A stretch of 64,000 bases of DNA from Escherichia coli. GTDB lineage: Bacteria > Pseudomonadota > Gammaproteobacteria > Enterobacterales > Enterobacteriaceae. Under the pieces are notes generated by a model. The model searched no databases. It was not told where the DNA came from and worked only from the letters and a program-made list of their open reading frames with translations. Within the stretch, counting starts at the first letter, position 1. Every line of letters starts with the position of its first letter. The position numbers were made by a program, and so were the translations under genes. This document shows, piece after piece, positions 4,975 through 48,208 of this stretch. Location of the stretch: the NCBI RefSeq assembly GCF_045037415.1, contig NZ_CP173438.1; one strand, written 5' to 3'.

Positions 4975-5865
4975 TTATTTCACCTGACCACGGGCAAACA
5001 GGTCGTCGAGCTTCTCTTCGTACTGGTAGTAGTTGATGCTTTCGTACAGCTCGTTGCGGGTCTGCATGGTGTCGATGACGCTTTTCTGTGTGCCTTCCTG
5101 ACGCAGGATGTTGTAGACATGTTCAGCGGCGCGGTTCATGGCGCGAAACGCTGAAAGCGGGTAGAGCGCCATTGCGACATGGGCGCTGCGTAATTCGTCG
5201 GTGGTAAACAGCGGTGTTGCGCCAAATTCGGTAATGTTGGCGAGGATCGGTACCTGCACCGCATCGGCAAACTGGCGATACATGGCGAGTTCGGTAATCG
5301 CCTCCGGGAACAGCATTTCGGCACCCGCTTCAACATAGGCCTGCGCACGCTCGATCGCCGCATCCAGCCCCTCTACCGCCAGCGCATCGGTGCGCGCCAT
5401 GATCACAAAATCAGGATCGGTTTTCGCATCCACCGCCGCACGGATCCGATCCACCATTTCCTCTTTCGAGACGATCGCTTTGTTCGGGCGATGACCGCAG
5501 CGTTTCGCACCAACCTGATCTTCAATATGCAATCCTGCCGCACCGGCTTTAATCATCGATTTCACGGTGCGCGCCACGTTAAAAGCAGAAGAACCAAAAC
5601 CGATATCCGCATCCACCAGCAGCGGTAGCGAACAAACGTCGGTGATACGGCGAATGTCAGTCAGCACATCATCAAGAGTAGAAATACCGAGATCGGGCAG
5701 CCCCAGCGACCCTGCCGCCACGCCACCGCCGGAGAGATAAATCGCCTGATATCCGGCACGCTGCGCCAGCAGCGCATGGTTAGCGTTGATAGTGCCAACA
5801 ATCTGCAATGGATTTTCTTTAGTCAGTGCAGCGCGAAACGCTTTACCTGGAGAGTGTAGAGACAT
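4975..5865 (-). CDS. prpB: 2-methylisocitrate lyase (isocitrate lyase/PEP mutase family)
   Basis: 296 aa ORF; KRCGH active-site loop seen (GAKRCGHRP); first gene of prp operon; AAGGA RBS upstream. Confidence 0.95.
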
Positions 5866-5911
5866 AGCCCATCCTTTGTTATCAACTTGTTATTTGCGTT
5901 GATAAAGACAA

Positions 5912-5927
5912 AGCAATGGGTGTGCCA
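5912..5927 (-). promoter_or_regulatory. Sigma-54 (RpoN) promoter of prpBCDE: TGGCAC-N5-TTGCT on the minus strand
   Basis: Plus strand reads agcaatgggtgtgcca, reverse complement TGGCACACCCATTGCT with GG and GC elements at the canonical -24/-12 spacing, ~45 bp upstream of prpB ATG. Confidence 0.8.
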
Positions 5928-6001
5928 CAATTGCCTTAATAAAATTAAACATTTAATTTCAATGAGTTAAAGATAAATTCATGAAGTAATCCGCAAATAT
6001 G

Positions 6002-6059
6002 CGTTTCAGTTAACGTTTCAGGCAATGTTTCACCGCGTTTCATTGCAACAATTATGAAA
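6002..6059. promoter_or_regulatory. Candidate PrpR enhancer (UAS) repeats in the prpR-prpB divergent region
   Basis: Direct repeats cgtttcag(6002-6009)/cgtttcag(6014-6021) and a palindrome GTTTCAT-N9-ATGAAAC (6037-6059) lying 80-150 bp upstream of the sigma-54 promoter; binding not proven from sequence. Confidence 0.4.
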
Positions 6060-6103
6060 CAAGACTAAACCCAATATTCGGTTTCTTAACTTTGCGGTGC
6101 GCT

Positions 6104-7691
6104 ATGGCACATCCACCACGGCTGAATGACGACAAACCGGTTATCTGGACGGTATCTGTAACGCGCCTGTTCGAGCTGTTTCGCGATATCAGCCTCGAGT
6201 TTGATCACCTGGCGAATATCACCCCTATCCAGCTTGGCTTTGAAAAAGCGGTGACCTACATCCGCAAGAAACTGGCCAACGAACGGTGCGACGCCATCAT
6301 CGCTGCTGGCTCTAACGGCGCATATCTTAAAAGTCGCCTGTCAGTGCCAGTTATTTTGATTAAACCGAGCGGCTACGATGTGTTACAGGCACTGGCAAAA
6401 GCCGGAAAACTCACCTCTTCTATCGGTGTTGTCACCTATCAGGAAACCATTCCAGCGCTGGTGGCGTTTCAAAAGACCTTTAATTTGCGCCTCGACCAAC
6501 GTAGCTACATCACCGAAGAAGACGCCCGCGGGCAAATCAATGAGTTGAAAGCCAACGGCACCGAAGCGGTGGTCGGCGCAGGGCTGATTACCGATCTGGC
6601 AGAAGAAGCCGGAATGACCGGAATTTTTATCTATTCCGCCGCCACCGTGCGCCAGGCATTCAGCGATGCGCTGGATATGACGCGCATGTCGTTACGCCAT
6701 AACACTCACGATGCCACCCGCAACGCCCTGCGTACTCGTTACGTGCTGGGCGATATGCTCGGTCAATCACCACAGATGGAACAGGTGCGGCAGACTATTT
6801 TGCTGTATGCCCGCTCCAGTGCGGCGGTGTTGATTGAGGGGGAAACGGGGACGGGCAAAGAGCTGGCGGCCCAGGCGATTCATCGGGAATATTTTTCCCG
6901 CCACGATGCGCGACAGGGCAAAAAGTCACATCCGTTTGTTGCCGTTAACTGCGGGGCGATTGCCGAATCGCTGCTGGAAGCGGAGCTGTTTGGCTATGAG
7001 GAAGGGGCGTTTACCGGCTCGCGACGCGGAGGACGCGCCGGGCTGTTTGAAATCGCCCACGGTGGTACGCTGTTTCTTGACGAGATAGGCGAAATGCCGC
7101 TGCCGTTGCAGACTCGGCTGCTGCGGGTGCTGGAAGAAAAAGAGGTCACCCGCGTCGGCGGGCATCAGCCTGTTCCGGTGGATGTGCGGGTCATTAGCGC
7201 CACTCACTGCAATCTGGAAGAAGATATGCAGCAAGGGCAGTTTCGCCGTGACCTGTTTTATCGGCTGAGTATTTTGCGTCTACAACTGCCGCCGCTACGC
7301 GAGCGGGTGGCGGATATTCTGCCGCTGGCGGAAAGCTTTTTGAAAATGTCTCTGGCGGCACTCTCTGTCCCTTTTTCTGCCGCATTACGTCAGGGATTAG
7401 AGAACCTGTCAGATTCTATTATTGCACTACGACTGGCCGGGCAATATTCGTGAACTGCGCAATATGATGGAACGACTGGCGCTGTTTTTAAGTGTGGAAT
7501 CGACGCCGGATTTAACGCCGCAATTTTTGCAGCTGCTACTGCCGGAACTGGCGCGCGAGTCGGCGAAGACTCCCATTCCAGGCTTGCTGACAGCACAACA
7601 GGCACTGGAGAAATTTAATGGCGATAAAACAGCAGCGGCGAATTATTTAGGTATCAGCCGGACGACGTTCTGGCGGCGGCTGAAAAGCTGA
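6104..7691 (+). pseudogene. prpR: Sigma-54-dependent propionate regulator PrpR, reading frame interrupted by a +1 frameshift near 7405-7422 (pseudogene or sequencing indel)
   Basis: Frame 1 ORF (to 7453) has Walker A GETGTGKE and GAFTGS; the C-terminal [17 protein letters not shown] and Fis-type HTH (AAANYLGISRTTFWRRL) continue in the +1 frame (7422-7691); intact PrpR is ~528 aa. Confidence 0.8.
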
Positions 7692-8885: not shown

Positions 8886-9692
8886 GCAGATAATTTACTC
8901 TCTACGTAATCAACCTGATTTGCCGAATCCCAACCATCGGCGATGATAGCCCCCGTAATGCGTGGTCCTTATTTCCGATAAGTTTACTTGAGTCTTTAGC
9001 TTCCCATTTCAGCCTACTCTCCCCTGTGTGGGCTTTTTCATTGGTCTGACCCGTCCTGAATAGCCAAACAATGGCAATGTTCCACTTTGCAGGGATGATA
9101 ATAAGGGGATCTGATTCAGAAGAGTTTTGAAAAGTTGGACCGCCATCGAGGCCTCGAACCCCGTACCATACAACAATCCTGGTTGTCGTCTGCTCTTCCT
9201 GATGAGCTAATGGCGGTTTTTGATATGAGCCTTACAGCATATTTTCTGTCAGGCTTGAGTGCGATGCGTAAGATACAGAAAAGCCCCCACACAAACATGA
9301 TGGAATTATGATTTTTTTCATATGAATGTCAACCCACACATTCACAAAACATCTGTATGAGAACATTTTTTATACACCATATAGCTGCGAAACCACTGCT
9401 GGTGCTTTTTTAAGCGAAACTTCGTCGATCACAACAAAATATCGGCGAAAAAGGAGGGGGAATGCCATTTGGCATACAGATATACAGATGAAATGATGAC
9501 CTGCTTTGCGATTCACTCTCTGGTGGAATAACAACTTGCAGGTGGCTCTCTTAAATAAAAATAAACGTCGCAGATAATAAAGCTCTGATTAAACCAGACA
9601 CTATCAGAAATCGCTCATAACTAACGTGTAAAGTAGTAGAGTTAATTTAACAATCTGAATTTACGCTATAGGTTTACCACTACTTTGATATT

Positions 9693-9768: not shown

Positions 9769-10818
9769 TCAGTCTGTTAGTGTGCGATTATCGATAACAA
9801 AACGATATTTCACATCACCACGCAGCATTCGCTCATAGGCTTCATTAATTTGATCGGCCCGAATCATCTCTATATCAGCCACGATGCCATGTTCGGCGCA
9901 AAAATCGAGCATCTCCTGAGTTTCTGGAATGCCGCCAATCATAGAACCAGCTATCGCGCGGCGTTTCATGATCAGGTTGAAAACTTCCGGCGATTTATGC
10001 GGTGTCGCAGGCGCACCAACCAGCGTTATGGTGCCATCGCGCTTCAGCAAGGTGGTAAAATCGTCGAGATTATGTGGCGCAGCTACTGTATTCAAAATGA
10101 AATCGAAACTCTTCACATGAGCCACCATCTCATCGGCATTGCGTGAGTTAACAACTTCATCGGCCCCCAGGGCTTTTGCCGCTTCGCGTTTTGACTCAGA
10201 AGTGGTAAATGCCACCACATGCGCCCCCATCGCGTGGGCCAGTTTAATCCCCATATGTCCCAGACCGCCGATGCCGACCACGCCCACTTTTTTACCCGGC
10301 CCGGCCTGCCAGTGGCGTAGCGGCGAGTACGTGGTGATTCCTGCACACAATAAAGGAGCCACCGCCGCCAGCTGCTCTTGCGGGTGACGAATACGCAGAA
10401 CATATCGCTCATGAACGACGATCTGTTGTGAGTAGCCTCCCAGAGTATGGCCCGGTTCATCCGGTGTCGGCGAGTTATAGGTTCCGGTCATGTGATCACA
10501 GTAGTTTTCCAGCCCGTCTTCACACTCTTCGCAATGTTTACAACTGTCGACAATGCAGCCGACACCGACCAGATCGCCCGGCGCATGTTTTTCTACCTGA
10601 TCACCAACGGCTACCACGCGCCCCACAATTTCATGACCCGGCACGCAGGGGTAAACCGTCCCCGCCCACTCCGAACGGACCTGGTGGAGATCGGAATGGC
10701 AGACGCCACAGTAAGCGATTTCGATTTTGACATCATGCGGTCCCGGTTCACGCCGGGTGATATCCATCGGTTCAAGCGGTTGTTTAGCGGAATATGCACC
10801 AACAGCTTTGATCTTCAT
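9769..10818 (-). CDS. yahK: NADPH-dependent aldehyde reductase, zinc-type alcohol dehydrogenase family
   Basis: 349 aa ORF; Zn-ADH signature GHEIVGRV and CxxC structural-zinc cysteines seen. Confidence 0.9.
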   Translation of the reverse strand: MKIKAVGAYSAKQPLEPMDITRREPGPHDVKIEIAYCGVCHSDLHQVRSEWAGTVYPCVPGHEIVGRVVAVGDQVEKHAPGDLVGVGCIVDSCKHCEECEDGLENYCDHMTGTYNSPTPDEPGHTLGGYSQQIVVHERYVLRIRHPQEQLAAVAPLLCAGITTYSPLRHWQAGPGKKVGVVGIGGLGHMGIKLAHAMGAHVVAFTTSESKREAAKALGADEVVNSRNADEMVAHVKSFDFILNTVAAPHNLDDFTTLLKRDGTITLVGAPATPHKSPEVFNLIMKRRAIAGSMIGGIPETQEMLDFCAEHGIVADIEMIRADQINEAYERMLRGDVKYRFVIDNRTLTD

Positions 10819-24699: not shown

Positions 24700-26176
24700 G
24701 TGATGTCCCGAATGGCAGAACAGCAGCTTTATATACATGGTGGTTATACCTCCGCCACCAGCGGTCGCACCTTCGAGACCATTAACCCGGCCAACGGTAA
24801 CGTGCTGGCGACCGTGCAGGCCGCCGGGCGTGAGGATGTCGATCGCGCCGTGAAGAGTGCCCAACAAGGGCAAAAAATCTGGGCGGCGATGACCGCTATG
24901 GAGCGCTCGCGTATTCTGCGTCGGGCCGTTGATATTCTGCGTGAACGCAATGACGAACTCGCAAAACTGGAAACCCTTGACACCGGAAAAGCATATTCGG
25001 AAACCTCAACCGTCGATATCGTTACCGGTGCGGACGTGCTGGAGTACTATGCCGGGCTGATCCCGGCGCTGGAAGGCAGCCAGATCCCGTTGCGTGAGAC
25101 GTCATTTGTTTATACCCGCCGCGAACCGCTGGGTGTGGTGGCGGGGATTGGCGCATGGAACTACCCGATCCAGATTGCTTTGTGGAAATCCGCCCCAGCG
25201 CTGGCGGCAGGCAATGCAATGATTTTCAAACCGAGCGAAGTCACCCCGCTTACCGCGTTAAAGCTGGCCGAAATTTACAGCGAAGCGGGCCTGCCGGACG
25301 GCGTATTTAACGTGTTGCCGGGCGTGGGCGCGGAGAACCGGACAATATCTGACCGATCATCCGGGCATTGCCAAAGTGTCATTTACCGGCGGTGTCGCCA
25401 GCGGCAAAAAAGTGATGGCTAACTCGGCAGCTTCCTCCCTGAAAGAAGTGACCATGGAGCTGGGCGGTAAATCACCGCTGATCGTTTTCGACGATGCGGA
25501 TCTCGATCTCGCCGCCGATATCGCCATGATGGCGAATTTCTTCAGCTCCGGTCAGGTGTGTACCAACGGCACTCGCGTCTTCGTTCCGACGAAATGCAAA
25601 GCCGCATTTGAACAAAAGGTTCTGGCGCGCGTTGAGCGCATTCGCGCGGGCGACGTTTTCGATCCGCAAACTAACTTCGGCCCGCTGGTCAGCTTCCCGC
25701 ATCGCGATAACGTGCTGCGCTATATCGCCAAAGGCAAAGAGGAAGGCGCGCGCGTACTGTGCGGCGGCAATGTACTGAAGGGGGATAGCTTCGATAACGG
25801 CGCATGGGTTGCACCGACCGTGTTCACCGATTGCAGCGACGATATGACCATTGTGCGAGAAGAGATTTTCGGGCCAGTGATGTCCATTCTGATCTACGAG
25901 TCGGAAGACGAAGTCATTCGCCGCGCTAACGATACCGACTACGGTCTGGCGGCGGGTATCGTGACGGCGGACCTGAACCTCGCGCATCGCGTCATTCATC
26001 AGCTGGAAGCGGGTATTTGCTGGATCAACACCTGGGGCGAATCCCCGGCAGAGATGCCCGTTGGCGGCTACAAACACTCCGGCATTGGTCGCGAGAACGG
26101 CGTGATGACGCTCCAGAGTTACACCCAGGTGAAGTCCATCCAGGTTGAGATGGCTAAATTCCAGTCCATATTCTAA
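24700..26176 (+). pseudogene. betB: Betaine aldehyde dehydrogenase, reading frame broken by a single-base insertion (extra A at ~25336-25337); pseudogene or sequencing indel
   Basis: Frame 1 reads ...LPGVGAEN then garbage to a stop at 25422; deleting one A from gagAAcc restores ...[28 protein letters not shown]... continuous with ORF 25376-26176; intact BetB is ~490 aa. Confidence 0.8.
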
Positions 26177-41861: not shown

Positions 41862-42746
41862 TCAATCATGTATTTTTACAGCAAGACAACCACGAACAAA
41901 CTCAGGATTAAAATGTTTTACCGATTCCCCAACATAACCCAAATCTAGCGAACTAATTTGCGCCATTTCTTTCTCTGTCAGTGAGAAATCCCAGATAGCA
42001 AAATTTTCTTCGATACGCTGTTGATGTGTCGATTTCGGAATAACGACCACTCCCCGTTGAATATTCCAACGCAGAATGACCTGAGAAATCGATTTTTGAT
42101 GGGCATCTGCAATACTCTGAAGCAGATTATTTTCAAAGGGTTTATGTCGTCCACCACCTAACGGAGCCCATGCTTCAGGCTGCACGTTATAATACTTCAT
42201 GGTTGCCAGCGCCTCTGGTTGGGCAAAATAGGGATGCAACTCGACCTGGTTGACCATCGGTTTAACTCTTACCGTTTCACAAAAGTTCGCCAGAACATGA
42301 GGGTAGAAATTGGAAACCCCAATCGCTTTTAATTTGCCCTCTTCATAGGCATCTTCGAGTGCACGCCACGCACTAAAATAATCGCGCATGGCCTGGTGCA
42401 ATAAATAGAGATCGAAGTATTCTAGCCCCGATTTTTTTAATGATGCTTCAATACCTGCTGCTGCAATATCCTGATTCAACATATCCTGCACCCACAATTT
42501 AGACGTTATAAATAACTCTTCTCGGGTACATAAACCTTCAGATATGGCTTCACGAACGGCTTCACCGACGGCATCTTCATTACCGTATACCGCTGCAGTG
42601 TCGATGAGTCGATAACCCGTGCGGATAGCATTCAACACTGACTGTTTGCACACGTCTTTATCGGTAACCTGAAAAACACCAAATCCCATCATCGGCATTT
42701 TCAGATTGTTACTTAATACGGAAAATTCCACTGTCAGTCCCTCCAT
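41862..42746 (-). CDS. Aldo-keto reductase (DkgA-like NADPH-dependent reductase)
   Basis: 294 aa ORF; AKR motifs ([27 protein letters not shown]); N-terminus parallels DkgA. Confidence 0.85.
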   Translation of the reverse strand: MEGLTVEFSVLSNNLKMPMMGFGVFQVTDKDVCKQSVLNAIRTGYRLIDTAAVYGNEDAVGEAVREAISEGLCTREELFITSKLWVQDMLNQDIAAAGIEASLKKSGLEYFDLYLLHQAMRDYFSAWRALEDAYEEGKLKAIGVSNFYPHVLANFCETVRVKPMVNQVELHPYFAQPEALATMKYYNVQPEAWAPLGGGRHKPFENNLLQSIADAHQKSISQVILRWNIQRGVVVIPKSTHQQRIEENFAIWDFSLTEKEMAQISSLDLGYVGESVKHFNPEFVRGCLAVKIHD

Positions 42747-42945
42747 TAGGTATGAACAATGAGTCTACGTTAAAACGTAACCTCAAATTAGTATGTGGAT
42801 TTTGATATCACTTATGCAAAAAATTCATTAATAATGTAGGACTGAAACCTCTCTATTTTTGGGGCAATGAAGCAGACGCTATCAGTGCTTTTGCCTTGGG
42901 ACTTGCTGTTTTTGATACACTTAGGGCCCAGGACATAACGAAAAT

Positions 42946-43836
42946 GTGCGATATGACAAAGAATTAACGGAGTATGTGATGATCAGGCAGAAGATTCTAC
43001 AGCAGCTCCTGGAGTGGATTGAGTGCAATCTTGAGCACCCTATTTCAATCGAAGATATCGCACAGAAATCTGGCTACAGCAGACGCAACATCCAGCTTCT
43101 GTTCCGAAATTTCATGCATGTGCCTTTGGGAGAATACATTCGCAAACGAAGGCTTTGTCGTGCCGCCATTCTTGTCCGGCTCTCCGCGAAATCTATGCTT
43201 GATATTGCACTCTCTTTGCATTTTGATTCACAGCAGTCATTCAGCCGCGAATTTAAAAAGTTATTCGGCTGCTCTCCCCGTGAATACCGCCACCGTGATT
43301 ATTGGGATCTCGCAAATATCTTCCCTTCTTTTTTAATACGTCAACAGCAAAAGACGGAGTGTAGATTAGTCAACTTTCCTGAGACACCTATTTTTGGCAA
43401 TTCATTTAAATATGATATTGAAGTGTCGAATAAATTACCGGATGAAGAAGTCAAACTGCGACGTCATCATTTAGTCAGATGTATGAAGAATTTTAAGACG
43501 GATATCTATTTCGTCTCCACGTTCGAACCATCAACAAAATCGGTCGATTTGCTCACAGTTGAAACTTTTGCCGGTACGGTATGCAAACAAACCGATTCAG
43601 AGATGCCGAAAGAGTGGACAATTAACCGAGGACTGTATGCCTCTTTCCGCTATGAAGGTGAGTGGGAGCACTACCCTGAATGGGCGCGAAACCTCTATCT
43701 GATGGAATTACCTGCCAGGGGGTTAGCCAGAGTGAACGGCAGTGATATTGAGCGATTTTATTACAATGAAAACTTCGTCGAAATTGATAGCAATAACATT
43801 GTTTGCGAAATTTTTATCCCCGTTCGCCCGGTTTAG
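42946..43836 (+). CDS. ykgA: AraC-family regulator with C-terminal GyrI-like effector domain
   Basis: 296 aa ORF (start could be 42979 MIRQK); AraC HTH (ISIEDIAQKSGYSRRNIQLLFRN... SFSREFKKLFGCSPREYR). Confidence 0.75.
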   Translation: MRYDKELTEYVMIRQKILQQLLEWIECNLEHPISIEDIAQKSGYSRRNIQLLFRNFMHVPLGEYIRKRRLCRAAILVRLSAKSMLDIALSLHFDSQQSFSREFKKLFGCSPREYRHRDYWDLANIFPSFLIRQQQKTECRLVNFPETPIFGNSFKYDIEVSNKLPDEEVKLRRHHLVRCMKNFKTDIYFVSTFEPSTKSVDLLTVETFAGTVCKQTDSEMPKEWTINRGLYASFRYEGEWEHYPEWARNLYLMELPARGLARVNGSDIERFYYNENFVEIDSNNIVCEIFIPVRPV

Positions 43837-43960
43837 CCTGTAACTCCATCACATAAGATTTACCCTACCCTGCCACCGTCTAATCGGTGCCAGGGTAGGT
43901 ATTCAGTAAATAATGGCGCTGCGCATGTCAACGCCATTATTATTTATTACATCGTCGTTT

Positions 43961-46900
43961 TTATTTCTCCTCAGCACCTTCAGTATCTGCAGGAACGGCG
44001 TTAATTGTCACAGTCACGGGTTTCATTTCATACCCTCCATATGTCAAAGAGTTGAATGTGAATGTGTATGTACCTGGCTTGTTGGTACTAAATGTACGCG
44101 TGATTTTCCCGCTCGCGAAATGGTCATTTTTCGACGGCAGGAACTGATAATCCGCCTCTGTCACCCCTTCCGGAGCCTCAATGTCGACCCACATGGTTCC
44201 TCCTACCGGGTTGTTTGCCGAGAACAGGGTTACCGTCAGTGTTGCTGTCGTTACCCCATCCGCCACCAGAGAATGCACATCAGATGTTGCGGCGAGCTCC
44301 GCGTTTTTATCATCCGCGACGAATTTAGATTCGGCAGTTTTCGTCGATTCCTGACCGTCGGCCTGTTCCACTTTCGCCGTGAGTGTATATGTCGCTGCGA
44401 CAGTGGTCGTGGCGGTGAAAATAGCCTGCCCTTGCTCATTCGTTGTCGCCGTCCCATTGGGAGTCAGAACTAAATTTTCCGGGCTGGCAGTCAGCGTCAC
44501 TTCGCTATCTTTCAGCAGGTTGTTATTGGCATCAGTCACCGTAACTTTATACGTCTGTTTGGTTTTGCCGTCCGCCACTGCACGGTTGCCAATCACCTCA
44601 ATACTGGAGATGGTCGCCGTAGTCTTATCGGCCACAAACGTTACAGACTGCGCATTCGAAGGCTGGTCATTTCCTGCTGACGCCGTGATCTCATAGGTTC
44701 CGGCAGTCACGGAAACCACCTGCAACTCCGCTTTCCCCTCATCGTTGGCTTTCACCCACACATTATCGCCTGTAAGCGGCTTGACACCCCGGGGCAGATT
44801 AAAGGTCACCAGGCTCCCTGGAACAGGGTTACCATTTTTATCCTCAACGTTCGCCGTCAGCGTAAAGGCATCTTTGCCGTTTGCCACTTTTTGAACGGCG
44901 GTGTCTACCTGCAGGTTTGCCTGACCGGTGCTGGCATCCGCGTTGAATTTCACCGTGACCGTCTTCTGAGCACCATTCACCGAAGCGGAAATATTGTGTT
45001 CTCCCGCAACCGTTGACATAAGCTCAATGTCCACTTTCCCTGCCGCATTGGTTGTTACTGTATTCCCCGTCTTGCTGGTCACACCCTGCGGTAAAGTCAG
45101 CGTAACTTCTTGCCCCTGCAACGGGTTACCATAGCTGTCCACGACGGTCAGGGTTATCTGGTTAGCAGACTGTCCATTAGCCAGTTGGTTATTAACCTTC
45201 ACTGTCATATCACGAATCTCAGCCTTAGATGCGTCACCTGCAACATTCAGCACCAGTGGCTGAGCAACGGCATTTTGGCCGTTCACTCGCGGCATCACAG
45301 ACAACTGACCCGCGGCAGATCCCAGCGTTAAGGTCGACACGTAGACCCCATTACCTTTCTCTGTCCAGTTTCCTGCTGAAGGACGCTCACTCCCCGTGCT
45401 GGCGGCACCACTAAACACTGGTGCATCTGGCTTCAGCCCGGTGACCGGATTCCCGTACGCATCCTTCACGGTGAAGGTGAGTTCCGTCGTCGTTTTAACC
45501 GTTGGAGTTTTATTGTCCGCAACAAGCGTAGAGTTCGCTGATGACATCTCTCCGGCAATAACAGTCAGCTGCGCGGCTTCGGTGGCTGCAGGCTGGCCGT
45601 TGAAGAGCGGCATGACACGAAGCTCGCCCGTCTTTCCGCCTGTAGTTAACGTAGCAACATAGGAACCGTCACCTTTTTCGGTCCAACTGGAAACGGTCGC
45701 CCCTTCAGAGGCGGTCCCCGTCAAACTTGCCGACAACGAAAGACCACTGATAGCGTTGCCATGCGCATCTTTCGCCACCAGCGTTACGGTTGTGCTTTCA
45801 CCGGCTTTTACGTGATCTTCTGCGACAGAGACTTTCGACTGGTTTGAAGATAATGCATCAGCCACCACGGTTACTTTTGCCGCATTCGCTGCCGCGTCCT
45901 GCCCATTGAGCTTCGGCATAACGTCTAATTCACCCGCCGTAGTGCCGAGAGAAATCTGCGCAATCCAGGTCCCGTCGCCATTATCCGTCCAGCCTGATGC
46001 CGTAGAACCAGCAGCAGCTGCGCCCGATAATGACGGTGCATCCGGATTGAGGCCAGTTACAGGGTTGTCATTAGCATCTTTTGCCGTCCAGATTGCCGTA
46101 ACTGTACCGCCAACCACCGGTTTATCAGGATTCAGGGTGATGGACGAATGTGCTGCATCAAGCGGCCCGGCAACAAACTTCAGCGTTTGTTGTAACGTGC
46201 CCAGCTGATACTGCTCGCTGAAGGCACGCACAACAACGTTCCCGGCACGGGTCGAAGAAACCGTGGCGCTGTAAACCCCTGGTTTTATTTCCGAAATGGC
46301 ACCAACGGTTACACCATTAGTGTCTTGCGGAACAAGTCGCAGGCGGCTGGCTTCTCCCGTCACCGGATTACCCTCGGAGTCCACCGCTGTCAGTGTCAGC
46401 GTGTAGGCTTGCTGACCATCAGCAACCACATCACCTGACGGCTCGTTAGCGCTCAGGGTGGAGTTTGCCACATCCATCATCGTGGCCCGCAGTTCTGCAG
46501 TGACAGTTTTGCTCATGTCATCAACGCTAACAGTAATCGTTGCCTCACCTGACTGCGTTCCGGTAGTAAAGACAGACTGATACACCCCTGATTCAGTTTC
46601 GGTGAACTCACCCAGTGTTGGCTTTGCCTGTGATTTAGTGGCCTTCAGGGTACGAGTCACAATATTTCCAGCCGGTTTGAAGGTTAGTTCAGTCTTGATC
46701 TGATCTTTCATGCCCGTGACTGGCTGACCCTCGGCGTCGCGCAGAGACAGCACCAGCGGCTTTTGCTCATTACCGTTAGCAAGCATTTGAATACGGCTCT
46801 GACCGTCAAGCGTTAACGCCGTACGATCGGCGCTCATACCAGCTCCGCTAATAACCACTTCTGTCTGCACACGTTTCGAGGCATTGCCTTTGTTATCGTA

Positions 46901-48208
46901 GGCAATCGCTGAAATCGCATAATAATTGTCTTTGCCTGCCTGATAAGCCGGGAGCGTCACTTGCCACTGATTGCCCTGCCCCGTAATTTTTCCGCCTGCG
47001 GCCAGCAAAGACGGCGCTTCCCATTGCACATTTTTCAGACCGTGAGTTGCTTTGCTGACCACAAGCCCCAGGGAAACCGTCTGGCCGCCCTTGCCTTCAA
47101 TACGCTCAGGCAGAGCAATACGGATCACTTCAGATTTGCGATACTCAAGAACGATATTGTTATTACGCTCAACCAGGTCATAGCGGCTGCCTGCCAGCAT
47201 TCGACGCTCGCGAATGCTGTCTGTATCGAGTTGTTTTTCCAGAGGTTCGCCAATCCGATAATTAACTTCCAGGCCAAAGCGAGTGTCATTCTCACCACTC
47301 TTGCCCTGCTTATGCCCGGCACTCAGGGTCAGAAGAGGCACTGGCGTGTAATTCACTTCAGCGGTAATCGCATGTGGATCTTTCTGGCGTTTATCTTTAC
47401 CAAACAGCCCGACTTCATCGCCATAATACTGTTCATACATGAGGCTTGCGCCAAGCTGCGGCCAGGCAGGTAAATAGCCCTCAGCACGAATATCCCAGCC
47501 ATTCGCCGGGCGTTCCTGATAATCCTCAACATCCGGCGATTTTTTCCAGCCAGAAGCCCGGATATAACCATTGGCGCTCAGTTTCAAATAATCACGCCAG
47601 TATTCCGCACCAACACCAATGCGGGTATGACTACGGGATAAATCATGATCGATAAAAGTATTCACCCCCGCCATCCAGTCATTTTCTGAAAAATGACGCC
47701 AGCCAAAACCAATATTTGACTGAGTACGATCGTCGGTACGATGTATTGCCCCCTGAGTGAACAACATATTTGTCGGTGTATCATAAATCGGATAAAGCAT
47801 TTCCAGCGAAGAGTCCTTCAGCGAGAAATTTTTATCGACATTCAGTTTGACGCGCGCAGTACCGTATTTCCCGAGCCACTCCTGAATTTCCTGGTTAGCT
47901 TTAGCGGTGGCCATTCCGGTAATAAAGTTACGTGTCGCATCGCTATCTGGCTGACTGCTTAAAAATGTCCCGGCATTAGCGGCAAGCGACGCGACATTTT
48001 TCTCCACGTTATTATTAGCAGTTACCGTAGTATTTTCCATGCTCAACCGTGGCTGAACCGCATGCTGCGCACGTGCTGCCATTACTGGCGTAAAGGTGAC
48101 TGCGAGTGGAAAAAGAACCTGAACAGAGATATTTGCCCACGCCACGCAGCGGGCCAGAACTGAATAACGAAATCGTGGCTGTTTATTGTCTGTTTTATAA
48201 CGTGACAT
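43961..48208 (-). CDS. fdeC: Intimin/invasin-family outer-membrane adhesin (FdeC/EaeH), intact
   Basis: 1415 aa uninterrupted ORF; N-terminal beta-barrel region and repeated Ig-like units (e.g. recurring VMPxxNGQxAxAxxAxxTV). Confidence 0.9.
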   Translation of the reverse strand: MSRYKTDNKQPRFRYSVLARCVAWANISVQVLFPLAVTFTPVMAARAQHAVQPRLSMENTTVTANNNVEKNVASLAANAGTFLSSQPDSDATRNFITGMATAKANQEIQEWLGKYGTARVKLNVDKNFSLKDSSLEMLYPIYDTPTNMLFTQGAIHRTDDRTQSNIGFGWRHFSENDWMAGVNTFIDHDLSRSHTRIGVGAEYWRDYLKLSANGYIRASGWKKSPDVEDYQERPANGWDIRAEGYLPAWPQLGASLMYEQYYGDEVGLFGKDKRQKDPHAITAEVNYTPVPLLTLSAGHKQGKSGENDTRFGLEVNYRIGEPLEKQLDTDSIRERRMLAGSRYDLVERNNNIVLEYRKSEVIRIALPERIEGKGGQTVSLGLVVSKATHGLKNVQWEAPSLLAAGGKITGQGNQWQVTLPAYQAGKDNYYAISAIAYDNKGNASKRVQTEVVISGAGMSADRTALTLDGQSRIQMLANGNEQKPLVLSLRDAEGQPVTGMKDQIKTELTFKPAGNIVTRTLKATKSQAKPTLGEFTETESGVYQSVFTTGTQSGEATITVSVDDMSKTVTAELRATMMDVANSTLSANEPSGDVVADGQQAYTLTLTAVDSEGNPVTGEASRLRLVPQDTNGVTVGAISEIKPGVYSATVSSTRAGNVVVRAFSEQYQLGTLQQTLKFVAGPLDAAHSSITLNPDKPVVGGTVTAIWTAKDANDNPVTGLNPDAPSLSGAAAAGSTASGWTDNGDGTWIAQISLGTTAGELDVMPKLNGQDAAANAAKVTVVADALSSNQSKVSVAEDHVKAGESTTVTLVAKDAHGNAISGLSLSASLTGTASEGATVSSWTEKGDGSYVATLTTGGKTGELRVMPLFNGQPAATEAAQLTVIAGEMSSANSTLVADNKTPTVKTTTELTFTVKDAYGNPVTGLKPDAPVFSGAASTGSERPSAGNWTEKGNGVYVSTLTLGSAAGQLSVMPRVNGQNAVAQPLVLNVAGDASKAEIRDMTVKVNNQLANGQSANQITLTVVDSYGNPLQGQEVTLTLPQGVTSKTGNTVTTNAAGKVDIELMSTVAGEHNISASVNGAQKTVTVKFNADASTGQANLQVDTAVQKVANGKDAFTLTANVEDKNGNPVPGSLVTFNLPRGVKPLTGDNVWVKANDEGKAELQVVSVTAGTYEITASAGNDQPSNAQSVTFVADKTTATISSIEVIGNRAVADGKTKQTYKVTVTDANNNLLKDSEVTLTASPENLVLTPNGTATTNEQGQAIFTATTTVAATYTLTAKVEQADGQESTKTAESKFVADDKNAELAATSDVHSLVADGVTTATLTVTLFSANNPVGGTMWVDIEAPEGVTEADYQFLPSKNDHFASGKITRTFSTNKPGTYTFTFNSLTYGGYEMKPVTVTINAVPADTEGAEEK

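Follow-up and report, generated by a model that had tools for sequence, protein, structure and literature searches.

Analysis of the divergent prpB-prpR control region in B2/ST131-type Escherichia coli and of the apparent frameshift in prpR

The 238-bp gap between prpB and prpR, at positions 5866-6103 of the 64-kb stretch of Escherichia coli DNA analysed here (the window), is very probably the canonical and already characterised region that divergently controls the propionate (2-methylcitrate cycle) regulon of E. coli, in a strain whose switch is normal and whose prpR frameshift is an artefact. Its elements and their architecture are those of the textbook and are already known. The gap is non-coding and its coordinates match the intergenic interval exactly: prpB, encoding methylisocitrate lyase and the first gene of prpBCDE, occupies 4975-5865 on the minus strand (a 296-aa ORF, named from the RefSeq annotation of identical sequence) with its ATG ending at 5865, and the ATG of the divergent prpR lies at 6104 on the plus strand.

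A 2.3-kb query around the region found matches in 5,225 of 5,426 complete E. coli genomes, with 100% identity to ST131-type strains and 95% to K-12, and the RefSeq annotation at the matching locus reads prpD, prpC, prpB, prpR and yahO. The region is B2/ST131-type E. coli sequence. It resembles the K-12 prpR-PprpB region in locus, in its 238-bp length and in architecture, and the two are identical in the leader, in the -24/-12 cores and at every one of the five half-sites described below. Eight substitutions set the window apart from K-12, none of them in a motif core: one falls in the N5 spacer of the sigma-54 element (position 5917) and seven in the A+T-rich spacer. The region is well studied and of little biological weight; synthetic biology already employs it, both in pPro vectors and in propionate biosensors. 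The propionate-inducible pPro vectors, reportedly built by Lee and Keasling in 2005, use this E. coli prpR-PprpB part, and the promoter is known to work.

The sigma-54 promoter, the prpB leader and the A+T-rich spacer

The sigma-54 (-24/-12) promoter of prpBCDE, TGGCAC-ACCCA-TTGCT (TGGCACACCCATTGCT), lies at 5912-5927 on the minus strand, beginning 62 nt upstream of the prpB ATG. Its GG and GC dinucleotides are exactly 10 bp apart within a TGGCAC-N5-TTGCW context, a pattern that matches once in the 64-kb window against 0.12 matches expected. Moreover, TGGCA[CT]-N5-TTGC was present 55-65 nt ahead of prpB in 18/18 divergent prpB-prpR regions. The claim of the initial annotation that a TGGCAC-N5-TTGCT element sits at the right distance from prpB is thus borne out by uniqueness, position and conservation. 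Published occupancy data agree with this assignment. The K-12 prpR/prpB spacer was bound by RpoN holoenzyme in gSELEX, at map position 347,864 (PMC8743547), and in Salmonella the prpB sigma-54 site TGGCATAGCCTTTGCTTT was occupied in ChIP-chip and the prp operon was 45-fold rpoN-dependent (PMC3844500). The core in the window has the same form as this ChIP-chip-verified Salmonella site. In K-12 coordinates the gSELEX position lies within about 20 bp of the promoter.

From standard -24/-12 geometry, with the G at -24 and the C at -12, transcription of prpB is predicted to start near 5901, which would give a leader of about 36 nt (5866-5901, minus strand) with a Shine-Dalgarno sequence, AAGGA, at 5872-5876. 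An inverted repeat, ATCAAC-N11-GTTGAT, spans 5880-5903 and contains a zero-mismatch IHF consensus, TATCAACTTGTTA, at 5880-5892 on the plus strand. In an alignment of 10 sequences, Escherichia, Citrobacter and Kluyvera all carry this leader element unchanged, whereas Salmonella lacks it. An RNA hairpin predicted for the prpB leader was no better than those of shuffled sequences (z = -0.3), and an Rfam search of the leader returned only a meaningless sub-threshold snoRNA match.

Upstream of the promoter, between it and the enhancer, lies a 60-bp spacer (5928-5987) that is presumed to be bent by IHF. It is 80% A+T compared with 51% across the whole window, confirming the A+T-rich stretch that had been described there, and both its sequence and its length differ between genera. 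A role for IHF is expected from Salmonella, where expression of prpBCDE requires sigma-54, IHF and PrpR, according to a passage of PMC4987338 that cites Palacios 2000. The best IHF-like core in the spacer, TTTCAATGAGTTA at 5957-5969 on the plus strand, has one mismatch to WATCAANNNNTTR and lies about 60 bp upstream of the predicted start site. IHF-like matches are common by chance, with 80 observed in the window and 64 expected from shuffles. The TAA...TG positions of TTTCAATGAGTTA, however, are the only invariant columns within the A+T-rich spacer across 10 enterobacterial sequences, which makes this segment a candidate IHF core.

That the spacer core carries a mismatch while a perfect consensus sits in the leader counts against the functional model. 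It invites the alternative, which we consider unlikely, that the functional IHF site is the leader consensus at 5880-5892 and that the A+T-rich spacer is merely intrinsically bent DNA. The leader match is not only perfect but also invariant in the three genera named above. Its position, however, is on the downstream side of the -12 element, so that bending there could not deliver an upstream enhancer to the polymerase, and TATCAACTTGTTA is not kept in Salmonella, where the need for IHF was demonstrated. Furthermore, the spacer confines its invariant columns to the core at 5957-5969, again favouring a bend within the spacer.

The prpR reading frame

As read, prpR (6104-7691, plus strand) consists of a 449-aa ORF (6104-7453) and a tail in another frame, and removal of one A restores a 528-aa protein. 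The frameshift is caused by a single extra A at 7403/7404, which converts GAGACC to GAGAACC (7400-7406, plus strand). GAGACC is the motif of RM.EcoMI and is 100% m6A-methylated in the ST131 strain EC958 (PMC4659465), and GAGAACC appears to be a miscall of it. Pfam detects PrpR_N and Sigma54_activat in the protein as read, without AAA_lid_14 and HTH_8; in the same allele lacking the extra A, all four domains are found. The truncation of prpR in the initial annotation therefore holds as a description of the reading frame, which does stop early at 7453 and yields 449 rather than 528 residues, but probably not as biology, given the likely single-base artefact at GAGACC.

Several comparisons bear on the nature of the extra base. 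GAGACC is intact in 641 of the 643 genomes with this B2-type prpR allele, and the insertion occurs in two (UID2309220015 and Esc14), in both of which RefSeq annotates prpR as 'frameshifted'. Two near-identical assemblies, Esc5 and Esc26, instead have GAACC at the prpR site. When the window was compared with Esc5, Esc14 and Esc26 (36-51 kb each), the differences were confined to three GAGACC/GGTCTC sites, in prpR (7403), betB (25336) and ecpR (57546), and comprised a mixture of insertions, deletions and a substitution. Such mixed changes, restricted to one methylated motif, point to systematic basecalling error rather than mutation. We consider it very likely, on these sequence comparisons, that the extra A in prpR is a nanopore-type basecalling artefact at an m6A-methylated GAGACC and that prpR is not a pseudogene. 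Counted against this claim, two of the three GAGACC sites that the window shares with AVS0968 are read correctly in the window. A 33-kb comparison with AVS0968 shows a single indel, the prpR base, which implies that the errors are motif-specific and not general; a generally error-ridden assembly was rejected on the same count. A prpR pseudogene common to the whole B2/ST131 lineage was likewise rejected, with the insertion in only 2/643 genomes.

The alternative is that prpR is truly inactivated by a +1 frameshift that removes the HTH, leaving an orphan control region that has not yet decayed and a prpBCDE operon that cannot be induced. It takes the ORF as it is read, ending at 449 aa without HTH_8, finds the same change called a frameshifted pseudogene by RefSeq in two genomes, and can point to many truncated PrpR proteins in public collections. 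We nevertheless hold it to be quite unlikely: nearly all genomes with the allele are intact, near-identical siblings show a different indel at the very same base, the differences between the window and these siblings all lie in GAGACC motifs of three unrelated genes, and the motif is fully methylated in ST131. With the artefact as our preferred reading, the switch in this strain is most likely normal and functional, and its truncated prpR should not be taken as a loss of propionate catabolism. More generally, apparent GAGACC frameshifts in long-read assemblies of ST131-type strains (here in prpR, betB and ecpR) are likely to be methylation-linked basecalling errors that inflate pseudogene counts.

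Some further differences were seen in the window and its relatives. The betB gene is split in the window into two ORFs (24700-25422 and 25376-26176), with GAGAACC at 25333-25339 where Esc5, Esc14 and Esc26 have GAGACC and an intact betB; this is probably another methylation-motif basecalling error. The ecpR site (57543-57548) reads GGTCTC in the window and Esc5, GGTTTC in Esc26, where the EcpR protein accession is altered, and GGT-TC in Esc14, where ecpR is annotated as frameshifted. In yahK of UID2309220015 (L001 8077, equivalent to window position 10676) an extra A turns GAAC into GAAAC and shifts the frame, 5 nt upstream of a CCTGG Dcm site, and the window is intact; it is likely another methylation-associated assembly error in the public record. 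By contrast, yahM (about 8903-9147) is annotated as frameshifted in all B2-type relatives inspected (UID2309220015, AVS0968, Nissle and Esc5/14/26) and intact in K-12, which seems to reflect a real difference between lineages and not an error. On a larger scale, the 14-kb segment at 33984-48043, encoding LutB, RclA and a 1,415-aa intimin-like inverse autotransporter, is replaced by an IS1 in Esc5, Esc14 and Esc26, and AVS0968 lacks a larger block, 21510-52233, at an IS1.

Within prpR itself, codons of approximately 431-441 (7394-7425) form a sharply divergent patch that defines two E. coli allele classes, the B2 type in about 644 genomes and the K-12 type, with LQASETVLLHY, in about 4,578. Identity is 85% over 151 bp compared with about 95% for the whole gene, and the patch has the look of an ancient recombinant or mosaic stretch of the AAA+ lid. 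In protein databases, dozens of PrpR entries from E. coli are 423-457 aa long and are missing the C-terminal lid and HTH domains. Some of these are contig-end partials; others may have arisen by frameshift artefact or may be genuinely truncated, with ends clustering near residue 430.

The PrpR half-site array and its arrangement in Escherichia

Upstream of the spacer, five TGAAAC/GTTTCA hexamers are packed into 58 bp; the background in the window is 0.75 per kb (Poisson P ~4e-9). Three of them, read as TGAAAC on the minus strand at 6003-6008, 6015-6020 and 6027-6032, form a putative proximal PrpR site of direct repeats 12 bp apart (6003-6032). The other two, at 6037-6042 on the minus strand and 6055-6060 on the plus strand, make up a putative distal PrpR site, the inverted repeat GTTTCAT-N10-ATGAAAC (6037-6060), assigned by motif match and conservation. 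On the plus strand the array reads as two copies of CGTTTCAG (6002-6009 and 6014-6021) followed by TGTTTCAC at 6026-6033 and then CGTTTCAT at 6036-6043. All half-sites start 81-133 bp upstream of the first base of TGGCAC. The repeats and the GTTTCAT/ATGAAAC palindrome noted earlier are thus present, with a correction to the spacing: a search for GTTTCAT-N9-ATGAAAC gave no match, and by direct count the spacer is 10 nt long (6044-6053).

The PrpR enhancer has been published as CGTTTCATGAAACG, a 14-bp palindrome (PMC4987338, in a passage citing Palacios & Escalante-Semerena 2004), and 2-methylcitrate is the signal to which PrpR responds (PMC4987338). The CGTTTCA unit repeated in the window is one half of this palindrome. 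This identity, together with conservation across genera, supports the earlier proposal that the repeats and palindrome are candidate PrpR enhancer sites, and the TGAAAC array as a set of PrpR enhancer half-sites is accordingly a supported assignment, albeit one made from motif comparison.

We collected divergent prpB-prpR regions in three ways. A genome scan with PrpR, which was dominated by generic sigma-54 activators, gave E. albertii, two Citrobacter, two Photorhabdus, several Oxalobacteraceae and a Xanthomonas, and gave no Salmonella; exact-protein look-ups gave Kluyvera, C. koseri, C. amalonaticus and E. marmotae; and a metagenome scan with the published 18-mer of the Salmonella prpB promoter gave four Salmonella-like contigs with prpB and prpR. 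The sigma-54 promoter and the half-site array occurred together in 17/18 of these regions, from Enterobacteriaceae to Oxalobacteraceae, the Xanthomonas spacer being the only one without an upstream GTTTCA/TGAAAC cluster. Across 12 loci, 48 half-sites were counted in 2.27 kb of upstream DNA, or 21 per kb compared with the background of 0.75 per kb, with the consensus (A)TGAAAC(G/A).

In the 10 enterobacterial sequences, the conserved blocks were the sigma-54 core, the distal repeat, TGAAACG-N5-TGA(A/C)ACG and the short TAA...TG. TGAAACG-N5-TGA(A/C)ACG is invariant throughout, the 24-bp distal block is near-invariant from Escherichia to Salmonella with its spacer included, and both are kept across Escherichia, Citrobacter, Kluyvera and the Salmonella-like contigs. 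The PrpR recognition helix, ISRTT(F/L)WR(R/K)L, is conserved in the taxa that share the half-sites, as would fit a conserved half-site. Within E. coli, the 75 bp of the half-site array are identical in 86% (4,478/5,218) of genomes, whereas the adjoining 75 bp, covering part of the sigma-54 promoter and the A+T-rich spacer, are identical in about 10% (420/4,262), indicating that the array is under much tighter constraint than the spacer.

Operators of the catabolite repressor/activator Cra (FruR) also contain the TGAAAC core, and their consensus half-site reads GCTGAAAC. Given that CCTGAAACGTTAAC and ACTGAAACGCATAT are similar to the left half of that consensus, the CTGAAACG repeats could be Cra operators instead of, or alongside, PrpR sites. 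A Cra site in the prpB regulatory region had indeed been reported earlier, as mentioned in a passage of PMC5829826. We regard this weak rival as very unlikely. The same study detected no binding of Cra to prpB DNA by EMSA (PMC5829826), and the window is without a full Cra palindrome. Moreover, the arrays track PrpR-type loci in beta- and gammaproteobacteria, always upstream of a sigma-54 promoter, and the half-site is half of the published PrpR enhancer, all of which favours PrpR as the protein that reads them. Chance matching in A+T-rich intergenic DNA is effectively refuted: short hexamers and degenerate consensus patterns do match often, and IHF-like patterns barely exceed shuffles, but the sigma-54 motif is unique, the hexamers are significantly clustered, and both the comparison between genera and the E. 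coli population data show the motifs to be conserved.

Comparison with the published Salmonella site gave agreement in the half-site but not in its arrangement. E. coli, E. albertii and E. marmotae all lack the contiguous 14-bp CGTTTCATGAAACG, a result that we count against the functional model; the Salmonella-like and four Citrobacter sequences have it. In place of the left half, GTTTCA, E. coli and E. marmotae have ATTG(C/T)C and E. albertii has AGTGTC, and in Escherichia the sequences 12 bp to either side of the retained half have become TGAAAC, giving the three direct repeats; in E. albertii the upstream, third repeat is degenerate (TGAAAT). The proximal site of Escherichia is a variant arrangement of the same element and not a different system, since the E. 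coli promoter works, as its use in the pPro vectors attests. In other respects the Salmonella enterica region is alike, with divergent genes, a sigma-54 promoter equally far from prpB, an A+T-rich spacer, the distal GTTTCAT-N10-ATGAAAC repeat and the TGAAACG-N5-TGAmACG block; apart from the contiguous palindrome, which it shares with Citrobacter and of which Escherichia lost the left half while gaining flanking TGAAAC units, it differs from E. coli in having a spacer 25 bp longer and in lacking the inverted repeat of the prpB leader.

The apparent exchange in Escherichia of the contiguous proximal palindrome of Salmonella and Citrobacter for direct repeats 12 bp apart is a mildly new detail. 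That the genus as a whole remodelled its proximal PrpR site, from the contiguous CGTTTCA|TGAAACG to three direct TGAAAC repeats at this spacing, we put forward only tentatively, as a possibility with less than even support. If PrpR does use the direct repeats, the protein would assemble on half-sites whatever their orientation, and the difference between Escherichia and Salmonella would be a natural experiment on how PrpR reads half-site orientation and spacing. Such rewiring, if true, could also explain the lower output of E. coli PprpB, which is about 3-fold below that of the Salmonella system (PMC5566544).

A putative prpR promoter and a model of the switch

A putative weak sigma-70 promoter for prpR lies at 6043-6071 on the plus strand, with a -35-like TTGCAA (6043-6048), a 17-nt gap and a -10-like TAAACC (6066-6071); prpR transcription is predicted to begin at about 6078. 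The TTGCAA falls inside the palindrome spacer, and both hexamers occupy conserved columns of the 10-sequence alignment. Because a consensus scan of 5800-6200 for sigma-70 promoters and terminators found nothing, and no strong sigma-70 promoter in particular, the assignment draws only on these conserved weak hexamers. The lack of a strong sigma-70 match would fit the reported CRP dependence of prpR. CRP is reported to activate both promoters through a single site that overlaps the PrpR operator. The CRP consensus TGTGA-N6-TCACA, allowing up to 3 mismatches, had no match in 5866-6095, which we count against the functional model, and the reported CRP site was not recovered by SELEX-chip either.

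Combining these observations, we outline a model of the switch. It joins the motifs, their uniqueness or enrichment and their conservation, as observed here, to the dependence on sigma-54, IHF, PrpR and 2-methylcitrate and the enhancer sequence known from the literature; its exact IHF core, start sites and prpR promoter are predictions. PrpR, an enhancer-binding protein with PrpR_N, AAA+ and Fis-type HTH domains, would be activated by 2-methylcitrate, made from propionate by PrpE and PrpC. It would then bind the (A)TGAAAC(G/A) array at 6003-6060 through the distal inverted repeat and the three proximal direct repeats. Bending of the 60-bp A+T-rich spacer by IHF would bring the PrpR oligomer, an AAA+ ring, into contact with sigma-54 RNA polymerase, which would be waiting in a closed complex at TGGCAC-N5-TTGCT (5912-5927), and ATP hydrolysis would open the promoter so that prpBCDE is transcribed from about 5901. 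In this model the distal palindrome overlaps the weak, reportedly CRP-dependent prpR promoter; from this overlap with the prpR hexamers, we infer that bound PrpR could influence its own promoter.

This architecture is one that the prp region has in common with other enhancer/IHF/sigma-54 promoters. In NifA-nifH, XylR-Pu and NtrC-glnHp2 an activator array lies about 80-160 bp from -24, an IHF-bent A+T-rich segment lies between, and the promoter carries a -24 GG and a -12 GC. In contrast to such generic sigma-54 systems, prp senses its signal through PrpR_N and 2-methylcitrate, and the TGAAAC half-site is specific to the PrpR group.
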